Positions 45,961 to 51,529 of a stretch of 64,000 bases of DNA are shown here, one piece after another. The stretch lies in assembly GCA_965248535.1 (NCBI GenBank), contig CBDFJR010000002.1, positions 1,312,001 through 1,376,000 of the forward strand, written 5' to 3'. The translations under genes and the position numbers were made by a program. Under the pieces are notes generated by a model, which was given only the letters and a program-made list of their open reading frames with translations, did not search any database and was not told where the DNA came from. Every line of letters starts with the position of its first letter. Within the stretch, counting starts at the first letter, position 1. This DNA comes from Phormidesmis sp. (GTDB lineage Bacteria; Cyanobacteriota; Cyanobacteriia; Leptolyngbyales; Leptolyngbyaceae).

Positions 45961-46023
45961 GTCGCTTTATTGGGGTCGCTAACGAGGAACGTCCTCTCCC
46001 CCATAAATAATGTGGTCGATGTC

Positions 46024-46449
46024 TTAAGCGCTAACAGTGATGCCCATGTTTTTAGCCGTGCCTTCGATGATTTTCATCGCGGCTTCGATGTCATTGGCGT
46101 TGAGGTCAGGCATTTTGGTCTTAGCAATGTCTTCTAACTGGGCACGAGTGATTGACCCGACTTTTTTACGGTTGGGTTCACCTGAGCCAGTCTCAATTCC
46201 CGCCGCTTTTGCAATCAACTTAGACGCAGGAGGCGTTTTGAGAATGAAGGTGAAACTGCGATCTTCATAGACTGAAATTTCTACCGGAACCACCATACCT
46301 GCCTGGTCAGCAGTTCTGGCGTTATATTCCTTGCAGAACATCATGATATTGACCCCGTGCTGACCTAGCGCGGGACCGATCGGAGGGGCTGGGTTTGCTT
46401 TTCCAGCGTTAATGGCTAACTTAATAACCGCCGCAACTTTTTTTGCCAT
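46024..46449 (-). CDS. rplK: 50S ribosomal protein L11
   Basis: [22 protein letters not shown]. Confidence 0.98.
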
Positions 46450-46476
46450 CGATCGTGATCTCTTTGAGAATTCAAA

Positions 46477-47121
46477 TTAAACTTTCTGAACCTGATTGAC
46501 TTCCAACTCGACGGGGGTGTCCCGCCCGAAGATCGAAAGCAGCGCTTTGAGTTTATTACGCTCACCGCTCACCTCAATCACTTCGCCTTCAAAGTCCTTA
46601 AACGGACCCGAAAGCACGACGATCTTATCGCCTGCCGCCATGTCAATCTTTCTGACTGGCTCCTGTCCTTGGGCCTGTTTGAAGATGCGCTCAACTTCTG
46701 AGTGACCCAAAGGCATTGGTTTGACGTGGCCCCGACCACGACCGTAGCGGCGCTTTTGCTCTGCGCCAACAAAGTTAATCACATTGGGCGTGTTTTTGAT
46801 CACCTGCCAAGTGTCGTCATCCATTAACATTCGCACCAAGACATAGCCCGGAAAGACTTTTTCAGCCCCTTCTTTAGACTTGCCATCTTTTTGAGGTCTC
46901 AAGACGGGTGTTTCGGGGATCTGAACGTCTAAAATGCGATTGGCGACATCCAAGGTTTGAATGCGCTGCTCTAAGTTGGCTTTGACGCGCTTTTCACAGC
47001 CCGATGCAACCTGCACCGCATACCATCGGGCTTTTTCTAGCTGGACATTTTCTTCAGGGTTTTCTTCCGCCGCACTATAGGGCTGATTTAAGTCTTTTGA
47101 CTCGTCTGATGTAAAAGTCAT
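46477..47121 (-). CDS. nusG: Transcription termination/antitermination factor NusG
   Basis: WYAVQV, FPGYVLV, KOW motif SGPFKDFEG, IFGRDTPVEL. Confidence 0.97.
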   Translation of the reverse strand: MTFTSDESKDLNQPYSAAEENPEENVQLEKARWYAVQVASGCEKRVKANLEQRIQTLDVANRILDVQIPETPVLRPQKDGKSKEGAEKVFPGYVLVRMLMDDDTWQVIKNTPNVINFVGAEQKRRYGRGRGHVKPMPLGHSEVERIFKQAQGQEPVRKIDMAAGDKIVVLSGPFKDFEGEVIEVSGERNKLKALLSIFGRDTPVELEVNQVQKV

Positions 47122-47342
47122 CCAAACACCTTCACCTGCGCCCATTGAAAGAGTTGATCGACCAGGTAGATAAGGGTTGCAGAGAGGGTGACCATCAAAA
47201 TTACCGCCACTGACTCACTGATAAGCTGCTGTCGGCTAGGCCACACCACCTTGTCCAATTCTTCTCGCGTTTCTTGGATAAAGGCGTTGGGGTTAAAGGT
47301 TGCCTTCTGCTCTGGAATGGTTGCTTCGTCTTTTTTTGCCAC
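47118..47342 (-). CDS. secE: Preprotein translocase subunit SecE
   Basis: EELDKVVWPSRQQL plus TM; lies between tRNA-Trp and nusG. Confidence 0.95.
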   Translation of the reverse strand: MAKKDEATIPEQKATFNPNAFIQETREELDKVVWPSRQQLISESVAVILMVTLSATLIYLVDQLFQWAQVKVFG

Positions 47343-47456
47343 AGTTCCTAAGCGCTCCCGTCAGGTTAATGAATGAGTGGTTTACACCCCTGTAGGCTTG
47401 ATGATCTAACCTGGAGGAAACCATGAATCTGGTGGCTCTAAACCAGAATAGTTCAG

Positions 47457-47529
47457 CGCGCCCTGGAGGACTTGAACCCCCGACATCAGGTTTTGGAGAC
47501 CTGCGTTCTACCAACTGAACTAAGAGCGC
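47457..47529 (-). tRNA. trnW: tRNA-Trp (CCA)
   Basis: GCGCTCTTAGTTCAGTTGGTAGAACGCAGGTCTCCAAAACCTGATGTCGGGGGTTCAAGTCCTCCAGGGCGCG; cloverleaf with anticodon CCA. Confidence 0.97.
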
Positions 47530-47635
47530 ACAAGCCGAACCGATCGCATTGCCACTTGTCTAGTCTAGCAGCTATTGGCAGTTTAGCTTTTAGCGATTAG
47601 TGATTGTGAAGGACTAACCGCTAGAAGCTGATTGC

Positions 47636-47998
47636 TTAGAGCGGACGATCGAAGCGTTGCTTGAGGCGGGTGGCCTTGCCGACGCGATCGCGCAAATAAT
47701 AAAGCTTGGCCCGACGAACTCGACCGCGACGCAGCACCTTGATGCTCTCAATGCGGGGAGAGTGCATTAGAAAAACCCGCTCTACGCCCACGTTTTGAAA
47801 GACGCGGCGAACGGTAATGTTTTGACTAATTCCTGCGCTGCCTTTGGCGATGATCACCCCTTCATAGGGCTGAGTTCGCTCTTTGTCGCCCTCTTTAATT
47901 TTGACACCCACGCGAACAGTGTCGCCCACATGGAGGATGGGAAGGTCTGATTTCATTTGTTCCGCTTCGATCGAGCGGATCAGTTCCTGCGCTTTCAT
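47636..47998 (-). CDS. rplS: 50S ribosomal protein L19
   Basis: [30 protein letters not shown]. Confidence 0.98.
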
Positions 47999-48164
47999 AG
48001 GGCTTCAAAAAACTCACAATTGCTTAGTGTAGCTGAGGGGTCAGTTTCTCGTCTAGAGGCTAGCCCGAATCTTATCTTAACTGACTAGGTGACATCTGTG
48101 CAGAAATCTTAGCGCCGAGGGATCTGAAGGGACAGGATTCGCTATCTTTTATGGGCGGCACTGC

Positions 48165-48736
48165 TGGGGTTGACGATCGCTCGTCTGCTCAGGGGGCGTG
48201 GGGAGATGGTGAAACTCTGACCGCTGAACCTGAAGGAGGCTAGACTTTAAGCTAGGGATCGTCTTGGTTTGCTCACGCCCGCTGAAACAGGGGCACGGTG
48301 GTGCCATAGCTTAAGTCACCCTTCAGAACGGTTCATAGTTTATTTCATTGTGTCACTGGGAAACCTAATCCCCTTGTGGGTTGGGAGGGATAGGTGCGCT
48401 TGCTGGTGGGGTTCAATACCCCGGAAGCAAGCAATAATCCTTGCTACTAACAGACTGTTTTTTGGTACAATCGAACTCATGACAAGCCCACTCCTTTAAT
48501 AAAGGCACGACCTGCAAGACTACGCACTACAGGGGATACAGTTTCAGAAGCTCCGGCTTTTTGGGAGAGAGGGATGAGAACACCAGGTTGTTGCTCCTTG
48601 CGAAAAAATTAAATACTCCGGGCTGCGGTCAATCAGCCTACTGCGCTCCGACTTCTAGACGGCTAGATGGATGTGGAAGTGCAAGCCTCATCCCCTTGTG
48701 GGTGAGGTAGTTGACTCACCTGACGATTGACTTCAC
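48165..48736 (+). ncRNA. ssaA: Probable 6S RNA, about 48165-48348 plus 48716-48736, interrupted by an IS605-type element
   Basis: Rod-like pairings TGAACC/GGTTCA, TGAAGG/CCTTCA and ACTTTAAGCTA/TAGCTTAAGT; closing-stem partner CCTGACGA lies beyond the insertion; resemblance to cyanobacterial 6S RNA is from memory; ends approximate. Confidence 0.65.
48349..48715 (+). mobile_element. 367-bp non-autonomous IS200/IS605-family element (PATE) with no tnpA or tnpB
   Basis: Matching subterminal hairpins CCTAATCC-CCTTGT-GGGTTGGG and CCTCATCC-CCTTGT-GGGTGAGG; guide GAAA matches flanking TCAT and guide CAAG matches terminal TGAC; no target-site duplication. Confidence 0.85.
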
Positions 48737-48748
48737 AGGGTTTTGAGT

Positions 48749-51529
48749 ATGTCATTTTTATTTTCTCTACGGCGATATCGTCTTCCTGGTTTTTTGTTTG
48801 CCCTTTGTTTAGCCACCGTTCTCTTGTCAGGAGAAATCGCGTTTTTGCCCCCTGCGATCGCCGAGCAAGCGCCTGCTAAACCGCCGATCGCCATCACCAC
48901 CACGCAACAAGTCAAAAAAACGATTTTAGAGAATGGCTTGACCGTATTGACTAAAGAAGTGCCAACTGCGCCTGTGGTAACGGTGCAAGTTTGGTATCGC
49001 ATTGGGTCACGCAACGAAGCGCCCGGTGTCAACGGCATTGCTCACCAGCTTGAACACTTGATGTTTAAAGGCACGAGCGATCGTCCGATTCAGTTTGGTC
49101 GATTGTTTAGCGCCTTGGGCAGCCAATCAAACGCCTTCACCAGCTACGATCAGACCGCTTATTTTGGCACGGTTGAACGCGACAAACTGCGATCGCTGCT
49201 GGCCCTCGAAGCCGATCGGATGCAGAGTGCCGTGATCGGTGCCCCTCAACTCACGAGCGAAAAGCGTGTCGTCATTTCAGAACTGCAAGGCTATGAAAAC
49301 AGCCCCAGCTATCGACTCGATCGGGCCGTGATGCGATCGGCGTTTCCTGACTCGCCCTATGGGTTGCCCGTGGGCGGCACTAAAGCCGATGTTGAGAAAT
49401 TCACCGTTGAGCAAGTGCGGGATTATTATCGCAATTACTACAGTCCTGACAATGCAACCGTGGTGATTGTGGGAGACTTTCAAACCGATGCGACGCTAAA
49501 AGCGGTTCAAGAATCCTTTGGTCAGGTTCCGAGGTCTGAAAAGCCCAAAGCTGCGGCCCAACCTCCGGCCCCGATCGTGACCAAAGGCAGCCCAGCAAAA
49601 GCGGCGATCGTGCTCAAACAACCCGGTAGCGCTGCTCTTTTACAGTCCGTCTACCCCCTGCCCAACGTCACCCATCCCGATGTGCCTGCTCTGCACTTGT
49701 TTGATTTAGTGCTGACTCAGGGGCGCAGTTCTCGGCTCTATCAATCTTTGATCGAATCGGGTTTAGCTAGCGACTATAGCGGCTATCCGGCCAATATGCT
49801 ATCTGGCGGATGGTATGGATTAGGTGCGACGGCGGCACCCGGTCAAGACTTATCAAAAATCAACCAAACCATCCAGGCAAGTTTGGCGAACCTTCGCACC
49901 AAGCCTGTGACCGTTGACGAACTGAAGCGGGCCAAAACTCAGCTTAAATCTTCTGTGCTGCTGCGAAACCGAAGCATCACCAATCAGGCGATGCAGCTAG
50001 GCGACGATCAAACGACGGCGGGCGATTATCAGTTTACCGATCGCTATTTGGCAGCGATCGAGAAAGTAACCACCGCCGATATTCAACGAGTTGCAAAAAC
50101 TTATTTTGACCCTAGCCAGCAGACCTTGGGATTCTTTGAGCCGACTCAGCTAGATGCCAAAGCAGGCGGCTCGGTGAATGCGGGTCAAACCGTGGAGCAA
50201 TTTAATCTAGGTGCTCCGGTCGATCCGGCTGAGGTGGCAAAATATTTGCCGCCTGTGACGCGGAGCGATCGCCCGGCTCAGGCACTGCCCGAAAAAACAA
50301 TTCTCTCAAACGGGCTGCGAGTGCTGCTGCTGCGCGACTCTAGCACCCCAACAGTTTCGCTCAGGGGTTATCTAGATGCCGGAACCTCTTTTGATGCGAG
50401 TCAAAAATCAGGGCTTGCCAAACTGACGGCTGACAACCTGCTGAATGGCACCCAAACCAAAGATGCGTTAACGCTAGCAACGACGCTTGACGATCGGGGC
50501 ATTGCGCTAGGATTTGATGTGAATCGAGAAGGATTGTCGATTAGAGCAAACACGCTTGTTGAAAATCTGCCAACGCTCGTGCAAACACTGTCAGACGTGA
50601 TGCAACATGCAGTCTTTCCTGATAGAGAATTGGAACTGAGCCGTCAACGCGCCCTCACTGCTCTCAAAGTTCAATTAGACAGCCCTGCATCTAAGGGAAG
50701 ACGCACCTTTCAGCAAGCGATCTATCCCTCTAATCATCCCTTTCACAACTTTCCGACTGAGGCCAGTTTGAAAGGCATTCAACGGCAAGACTTGCTGAAC
50801 TTTTATAAGAGTCACTATCGTCCTGATAAGACCACGGTGGCGCTGGTGGGCGACTTTGACCCGGCTCAGGTGAAGAGTCTATTAGAGAAAGAATTGGGCA
50901 CCTGGAAAGCCACAGGGCAGGCTCCTGCCTTGACGTTTCCGCCTGTGGCGCTGCCTGCAACTGGGGTGCGTCTCTATGACGGCATTCCTGGCAAAACGCA
51001 ATCGATTAGCTACCTGGGTTATGTGGGCATCAATCGCACCGATCCCCGCTATTATTCAGCGATCGTGATGAACCAAATTTTGGGCGGCGACACGCTAGCG
51101 AGTCGATTGGGCACCGAGATCCGCGATCGTCAAGGACTCACCTACGGGATTTATAGTGTCTTTCAGGCAGGCATTCATCAAGGGCCCTTTCTGATCTCAA
51201 TGCAGACAGCCCCCGAAGATGCCCCGAAGGCGATCGCCAACACGCTCAAAGTGTTGGAGCAATTTCGCACCCAAGGGGTAAGCACCAGCGAGGTGTTAAC
51301 GGCCCAGCGATCGCTGACGAGCAGCTATCCCGTAGATTTAGCCGACCCCGATGATCTGGCATCCATCATCTTGATGAACGATGTTTATGGACTGAATCCC
51401 GCAGAAATTCGTCAGTTTCCTAAACAGATTGATGCGGTGACTCAGGCTCAGGTGAATGAAGCCACTCAAGATTTGCTGCACCCCGATCGCTTGGTGGTTG
51501 TGACGGCTGGGCCTGCAATGGCTCGTTGA
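48749..51529 (+). CDS. M16 family zinc peptidase (pitrilysin/PqqL-like), exported
   Basis: GIAHQLEHLMFKG (HxxEH), SNAFTSYDQT, duplicated M16 halves, signal peptide. Confidence 0.93.
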   Translation: MSFLFSLRRYRLPGFLFALCLATVLLSGEIAFLPPAIAEQAPAKPPIAITTTQQVKKTILENGLTVLTKEVPTAPVVTVQVWYRIGSRNEAPGVNGIAHQLEHLMFKGTSDRPIQFGRLFSALGSQSNAFTSYDQTAYFGTVERDKLRSLLALEADRMQSAVIGAPQLTSEKRVVISELQGYENSPSYRLDRAVMRSAFPDSPYGLPVGGTKADVEKFTVEQVRDYYRNYYSPDNATVVIVGDFQTDATLKAVQESFGQVPRSEKPKAAAQPPAPIVTKGSPAKAAIVLKQPGSAALLQSVYPLPNVTHPDVPALHLFDLVLTQGRSSRLYQSLIESGLASDYSGYPANMLSGGWYGLGATAAPGQDLSKINQTIQASLANLRTKPVTVDELKRAKTQLKSSVLLRNRSITNQAMQLGDDQTTAGDYQFTDRYLAAIEKVTTADIQRVAKTYFDPSQQTLGFFEPTQLDAKAGGSVNAGQTVEQFNLGAPVDPAEVAKYLPPVTRSDRPAQALPEKTILSNGLRVLLLRDSSTPTVSLRGYLDAGTSFDASQKSGLAKLTADNLLNGTQTKDALTLATTLDDRGIALGFDVNREGLSIRANTLVENLPTLVQTLSDVMQHAVFPDRELELSRQRALTALKVQLDSPASKGRRTFQQAIYPSNHPFHNFPTEASLKGIQRQDLLNFYKSHYRPDKTTVALVGDFDPAQVKSLLEKELGTWKATGQAPALTFPPVALPATGVRLYDGIPGKTQSISYLGYVGINRTDPRYYSAIVMNQILGGDTLASRLGTEIRDRQGLTYGIYSVFQAGIHQGPFLISMQTAPEDAPKAIANTLKVLEQFRTQGVSTSEVLTAQRSLTSSYPVDLADPDDLASIILMNDVYGLNPAEIRQFPKQIDAVTQAQVNEATQDLLHPDRLVVVTAGPAMAR

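Follow-up and report, generated by a model that had tools for sequence, protein, structure and literature searches.

Gene-less members of the IS200/IS605 group have been described as PATE-like elements, among them ISGst of G. stearothermophilus, for which cutting of the donor joint is also treated (PMC10055086), and the PATE of Halanaerobium hydrogeniformans, which in the relevant part of that report consists of the element ends plus the last 58 nt of tnpB (PMC7290912). Stand-alone omegaRNAs of OMEGA systems can act in trans, and a passage of PMC10691335 states their role as an open question. In the ISDra2 omegaRNA, as portrayed in part of PMC10097598, the 5′ portion overlaps tnpB codons and is dispensable for cutting. 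At the ends of IS608, according to a section of PMC3201880, guide bases 1 and 2 pair with bases 2 and 1, respectively, of the cleavage motif.

The window analyzed here is a stretch of 64,000 nt (G000:C2:1312001-1376000) from a near-complete cyanobacterial genome, that of Phormidesmis sp. Its plus strand carries, at 48349..48715, a non-autonomous IS200/IS605 element of the PATE type, 367 nt long. Like the PATE-like elements as described in parts of PMC10055086 and PMC7290912, it contains no ORF, shares its hairpins, guides and target motif with tnpB-coding copies and keeps the tnpB tail together with the right end. Unlike the Halanaerobium PATE, in the account of PMC7290912 that we draw on, it has a 120-nt segment that is unmatched in tnpB loci, lies behind a retained promoter motif and is found in four families. 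With stand-alone omegaRNAs, as far as the cited passage of PMC10691335 describes them, it shares mobility, lack of an effector, a compatible effector in the same genome and a flank-derived guide; it differs in its extra 5′ domain, and its in-trans role is putative. As in ISDra2, in the portion of PMC10097598 cited above, the terminal bases are predicted to pair with a loop ca. 90-105 nt upstream, the guide follows the right end and the total RNA length is near 230 nt, whereas the 5′ part is non-coding here and yet conserved. As in IS608, each subterminal hairpin is preceded on its 5′ side by a guide of four bases that pairs with a cleavage motif, the left site being outside and the right site inside the element; the motifs differ, TCAT/TGAC here versus TTAC/TCAA in the cited section of PMC3201880, and no tnpA is present here.

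We propose that this gene-less 367-nt element, inserted after TTCAT, is likely to transcribe a stand-alone TnpB guide RNA directed against its own empty site. The kind of element is otherwise ordinary; the new part is a family in which tnpB is replaced by the conserved 120-nt segment.

The Insertion and Its Ends

The target (transposon-adjacent) motif TTCAT occupies plus-strand positions 48344..48348, so that the left cleavage site lies outside the element. The left end (48360..48385, plus strand) consists of the guide GAAA (48360-48363) followed by a subterminal hairpin, and the right end (48682..48715, plus strand) of the guide CAAG (48682-48685), a hairpin (48686-48707) and the cleavage motif TGAC. 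The four-base guides fit their cleavage motifs (GAAA/TCAT and CAAG/TGAC), as is expected of a PATE, and both pairs fit the IS608 pairing register as given in part of PMC3201880, the fourth-base pairing being extrapolated from AAAG/TTAC in the same source.

In all five genus relatives aligned, TTTCAT is joined directly to TC(A/G)CCTGAC, and the empty site of a relative is also present in a contig of run X3. Thus, the empty site is exact, the insertion lies 3′ of a conserved motif and there is no target duplication; no transposase or nuclease ORF is found inside, and the ends are common to coding copies. These empty sites and the other copies in the genome bear out, to the nucleotide, the boundaries (48349-48715) that the original prediction gave for an ORF-less IS200/IS605 element, and they support in principle its proposal that excision would restore the site without a scar. 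None of the four joints listed from the contigs of four runs is the 48348-48716 joint, contigs being apt to drop rare variants. Contigs of runs X1 and X2, which possibly derive from the source sample, are unbroken across the left junction.

BLAST revealed five further copies in the genome (six in total), four of them inserted after TTCAT and one after TTTAT. One encodes an intact 374-aa TnpB, two have a broken tnpB and the remaining two, both short, contain no ORF. A minus-strand IscB/HEARO element was considered and dropped, the sister copy having tnpB on the plus strand. IStrons, which are self-splicing IS605/IS607 elements, have a group I intron at the left end and a terminal G; here, no Rfam intron match was obtained, and the element ends in C.

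Several of these copies have features of their own. The sister ORF-less copy at G000:C5:390170-390530 has a truncated right end, and the 11 nt that immediately precede its left end are found again where the truncation falls, which is unusual for a family without target duplication. The broken-tnpB copies at C5:460036-460893 and C5:2022985-2021827 share a ca. 290-nt unrelated stretch before a right end that has no CAAG guide. In another genome (G014:C6:44691), a 51-nt minimal element of the same family is made up of TTCAT, one hairpin and then GTTGAC.

The Host DNA and the 6S RNA Question

The element is inserted between rplS on the minus strand (47636..47998; named, for ribosomal protein L19, from its sequence), the divergent neighbor of the host stretch, and a plus-strand gene for an M16-family peptidase of 926 aa (48749..51529), whose ATG at 48749 is separated from the element end by 33 nt. 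An ordinary tRNA gene with a CCA anticodon (Trp) lies at 47457-47529, between rplS and the secE-nusG-rplK cluster. The host intergenic DNA to the left of the element extends over 48113..48348. Its right part (approximately 48225-48348) can be aligned, weakly, with the DNA upstream of the peptidase gene in genus relatives: a profile of five such regions crosses the join from ca. 48225 and scores 76 bits in total; taken by itself, the portion to the left of the join reaches only 0.3 bits (E 0.033). This profile and the relatives' empty sites place the element in the peptidase upstream region. There, GCTAGACT is kept in six of six genus relatives; in the window, CTAGACT (48240..48246, plus strand), with the −10-like TAGACT at 48241, is a candidate host promoter. 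The element parts this conserved −10-like motif from the peptidase gene and yet brings a −10 motif of its own.

For the left part, 48113-48224, no homologue was found by BLAST in 40 relatives and 400 genomes of the class. It occupies the place of a transporter operon of 3-5 kb, cbiMNQO-like or metal ABC (names inferred from the ORFs), which separates rplS and the peptidase gene by 3.5-5 kb in genus relatives. The host stretch as a whole has BLAST matches in 0 of 40 relatives, and the matches in 52 of the 400 class genomes cover only 19-50 nt (E 1e-4 to 0.05) and are short chance-level hits. The operon is found in genus and family relatives and is gone from this site in G000; cbiM, cbiN and cbiQ of the relative G002 have no tblastn match at E 1e-3 anywhere in G000. 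A decayed cbi gene was rejected as the origin of the host stretch: no convincing protein match was obtained, and local DNA scores were within the shuffle range, except for G002 (42 versus a shuffle maximum of 37). The host stretch was also considered as a second IS element, given a preceding TTAG and a joint 48112-48716 in runs X1 and X2. This reading was dropped because the joint has a side of 30, has unknown letters between and lies at the entry point of the relatives' transporter operon; most likely, it comes from a co-occurring relative.

The original prediction took the host stretch for a probable 6S RNA gene, a global regulatory RNA with the element inserted in its 3′ strand, and saw in it either a natural knockout, a 6S RNA tolerant of an extruded domain or a locus restorable by TnpA acting in trans. 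What the stretch has in common with cyanobacterial 6S RNA (SsaA/Yfr7, Rfam RF00013) is only a rough length, near 180-200 nt, and a partial rod. The genome has a single RF00013 match, intact and outside the window (101 bits; C2:1909137-1909320), beside purK, a name read from the ORF. A location of cyanobacterial SsaA beside purK is reported in the part of PMC1242208 consulted, and this is the locus described there. Exactly one RF00013 match was found in each of 25 genomes out of 25, the 24 relatives included, and the single-copy position beside purK is thus held by intact ssaA, not by the host stretch. Since ssaA is intact there, no global regulator has been knocked out.

Searches of the locus itself agree. 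An Rfam scan of 46000-51000 at E up to 1 returned only a tRNA and one chance match, hence no 6S RNA in the native region, and scans of four natural empty loci likewise returned no 6S. A profile HMM built from the 6S genes of the 24 relatives gave 178 bits on the genome's ssaA and no match on the native or the joined host stretch; the joined stretch was tested with this profile and through the natural empty sites, in place of the Rfam model. A covariance model built from 18 of those 24 genes and run with filters off gave 182.5 bits on ssaA. With E up to 10 it matched nothing in the host stretch, and elsewhere in seven loci, five natural empty sites among them, no score exceeded 6.8 bits. The one result in favor of a 6S relationship is a pairwise local alignment with the genome's own ssaA (score 29, z 3.0), one of 25 comparisons, the others of which reached at most 1.9.

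The rod on which the 6S assignment rested is partly real. All the motifs quoted for it are in place, and the inner part of the supposed long rod (48181-48348) is a genuine imperfect inverted repeat (48212..48341) whose arms, 48212-48257 and ca. 48304-48341, give a score that only one dinucleotide shuffle in 500 attains, as do 19 windows among 1500 drawn at random from the genome. The repeat is not the minimum-energy fold of 48165-48348 (z −1.14); its folding z is −1.5 versus −3.8 for the true 6S RNA of the genome, and five genus relatives do not conserve it. The partners of TCGTC and TCAGG were thought to occur only after 48715, yet GACGA is present at 48172 and CCTGA at 48229, both inside the 5′ piece. 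The two partners share 2 nt in CCTGACGA, and all five relatives have T in place of the G at 48725. When 48349-48715 is deleted in silico, the resulting joined forms of 205 nt and 179 nt have folding z values of 0.01 and −0.42. With partners already present in the 5′ piece, overlapping in CCTGACGA, and with joined z values about zero, the argument from closure by excision fails.

The covariance search thus found no 6S RNA, excision brought no gain in score (joined folds at z about zero, no profile HMM match) and the 3′ ends of the 24 relatives' 6S genes are unlike TCACCTGACGA, and on these three grounds we consider the split-6S reading refuted. That the element splits a 6S gene, be it a divergent second paralogue, and that excision could restore it, is accordingly given next to no probability: the length, the partial rod and the single alignment at z 3.0 are opposed by the one intact ssaA beside purK, the single 6S match per genome and the negative results of the Rfam, profile HMM and covariance searches. 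The stretch differs from cyanobacterial 6S RNA in sequence and covariance, in locus and in its lack of conservation, the true gene being elsewhere. Taken jointly, that the element is a gene-less IS200/IS605 element and that its host is not 6S RNA is close to certain. The claim of a split global regulator falls, and a real insertion with exact ends, in a misnamed host, stays.

The repeat could instead belong to a strain-specific structured leader or small RNA of the peptidase region, other than 6S, the 3′ part of which was displaced by the element. Its score, above that of 499 of the 500 shuffles, speaks for this, but random genome windows score as high 19 times in 1500 and the region was picked after the fact; in addition, the repeat lacks conservation in the five genus relatives, the class genomes offer chance-level matches only and the joined form is no more stable than shuffles. 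We consider such an RNA quite improbable. On the present alignments, the repeat is lineage-specific, and we treat the rod in the host DNA as incidental.

Supply of TnpB and TnpA

The genome bears a heavy IS200/IS605 load: matches to the TnpB zinc-finger domain number 28, and of 11 matches to Y1 transposases, five are full length. The TnpB of the sister copy (C2:243657-242536) is 374 aa long, scores 194.5 bits against NF040570 (cut-off 100) and contains GVDLG, VFEDL and HADHNAA, which we take to be the RuvC motifs. A related intact TnpB is thus encoded in the same genome, as is expected where an omegaRNA stands alone; a close TnpB was found in only two of the eight other genomes that carry the element's segment, most of these being fragmented assemblies. 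By fuzzy search, the CAAG...TTGAC right end is present at 19 of 28 loci of this TnpB family.

The 1.5-kb flanks of the 28 TnpB-family loci contained no match to TnpA, nor did the flanks of 25 further loci, and the element's ends are present at none of the five full-length Y1 transposase genes of the genome. With no TnpA found to have these ends, the element may be stranded.

A Conserved Segment in the tnpB Slot

The slot that tnpB fills in coding copies is taken in the element by a conserved segment (48482..48601, plus strand), predicted to be a structured RNA domain and without Rfam or Pfam match. It is preceded by an extended −10 motif, TGGTACAAT, at 48463..48471 on the plus strand (−10 place at 48466), the same position that the motif takes before the tnpB ATG in coding copies. 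Of 20 copies for which upstream sequence is available, near-duplicates being counted, 17 have the motif at a distance of 10-11 nt from the conserved start, versus a background of 0.8%. A consensus promoter scan, which requires a −35 box, returned no site.

Within the genome, the two ORF-less copies are all that a profile built on 48482-48601 detects, and against the 28 tnpB loci it gives nothing better than E 0.5; on this profile, the element's middle part does not derive from tnpB. Its origin as a tnpA fragment was rejected, with a best E of 0.016 over 7 residues and no Pfam match. At seven loci of the family, no Rfam match exceeded the gathering score. The segment is present in 6 of 401 class genomes, spanning four families, in 6 of 90 order genomes and in six metagenome stretches; the class and order searches combined give nine carrier genomes, G000 included, from four cyanobacterial families. 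Exact-pattern scans gave no hit in metagenomes or viral contigs. A phylum-wide 16-nt pattern occurred in 41 of 401 genomes, and among 30 of its loci, only the window's own matched the interior profile.

Twenty-two loci were collected, among them 11 full-length copies of 340-435 nt. These 11 have a mean identity of 87% over the segment and of 89% over the tnpB tail, compared with 69% and 66% over the two stretches that precede the segment on its 5′ side. An alignment was made of 16 of the 22 loci, four near-duplicates, one 5′-truncated and one internally deleted copy being left out, and the interior structure, 24 pairs, was composed of RNAalifold helices and one helix added by eye. Its pairs are kept at 97.6%, and nine cells have changed on both sides (0 of 500 shuffles); two of the 24 pairs covary, a count that 81 of 500 shuffles reach. 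Since the structure was derived from the same alignment, the covariation support is modest, and the 120-nt segment is a structured RNA by prediction. In no reading frame are synonymous changes clearly in excess; the best frame has 9 of them against 13 non-synonymous ones. In the genome G271, an ORF-less copy and a tnpB copy have the same variant ends, which suggests that segment and tnpB can be exchanged in one slot.

These data also bear on the view that the element is an inert relic, in which the segment is captured DNA without function, spread by a single recent ancestor, and no usable guide RNA is made. The absence of a TnpA with matching ends, the six of eight other carriers in which no cognate TnpB was found, the mere two covarying pairs and a copy in this genome that has lost most of the segment all fit such a relic. 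Against it stand a segment better conserved than its 5′ neighbors, a −10 motif kept at fixed spacing while surrounding bases change, stems that are kept while loops vary and the G271 segment, which sits between the variant ends of that genome's tnpB element; the lack of synonymous excess speaks against it as well. We therefore regard an inert relic as unlikely and retain the reading in which the element gives rise to a guide RNA.

Tentatively, and with more doubt than belief, we suggest a cyanobacterial mobile, RNA-only IS605 family in which a structured RNA domain would be an exchangeable cassette that replaces tnpB under the tnpB promoter and is selected in its own right. If so, the domain may serve to express, protect or load the guide RNA without a tnpB message, and gene-less elements would hijack TnpB in trans and offer a natural leader for guide expression. 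In the portions of the literature searched, we came upon no account of a segment of this kind in place of tnpB.

Putative Guide RNA and Its Target

The 3′ part of the element (48617..48715, plus strand) is an omegaRNA-type scaffold common to the tnpB tail. Its loop GTCAAT (48628-48633, plus strand) is complementary to the terminal GTTGAC, with which it is predicted to form a pseudoknot; GTCAA(T/C) is found 75-88 nt before the right end at 24 of 28 tnpB loci. Three of 26 pairs in the 3′ part covary (17 of 500 shuffles), and the scaffold differs from the tail of the sister TnpB gene in the middle stem. The flank at 48716..48731 (plus strand) would be the guide segment and, together with TTCAT, matches the empty site; TTCAT plus the first 10 nt of the flank has no other match in the genome. 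Scaffold, terminal pseudoknot and flank-derived guide are thus present as in an omegaRNA, as read from sequence complementarity alone. We lean towards the element producing a working guide RNA.

In the scheme that we propose, TnpA acting in trans would most likely have inserted the element behind TTCAT. From the extended −10 motif, transcription would start at ca. 48478 and yield an RNA of ca. 235 nt plus the guide, the 3′ 95-100 nt of which may fold into the omegaRNA pseudoknot. The RNA could then be loaded by the TnpB encoded at C2:243657-242536. With the flank as its guide, the only full target would be the empty site, so that the sister TnpB would cut chromosomes that had lost the element, as has been shown for ISGst elements (PMC10055086); repair of the cut chromosome from a sister chromosome would keep the element in place. 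The 120-nt segment might stand in for the tnpB message, acting as a folded leader that protects the guide RNA or helps process it; this is the weakest step, and a leader role of the segment is conceivable rather than probable.

Contigs of RNA runs, which come from other organisms, include deeply covered relatives of the element, whereas 48136-48336 is missing from them altogether. The DNA-type run X5 shows the same pattern, and this coverage therefore says nothing about expression. The family is a compact test case for the role of stand-alone omegaRNAs, combining a candidate promoter, a TnpB in the same genome and a known target motif, and it also offers many natural guides and a conserved 5′ RNA segment without Rfam match. 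In the tnpB genes of this family, the start codon lies 6 nt after the −10 motif, and the message is therefore probably leaderless.
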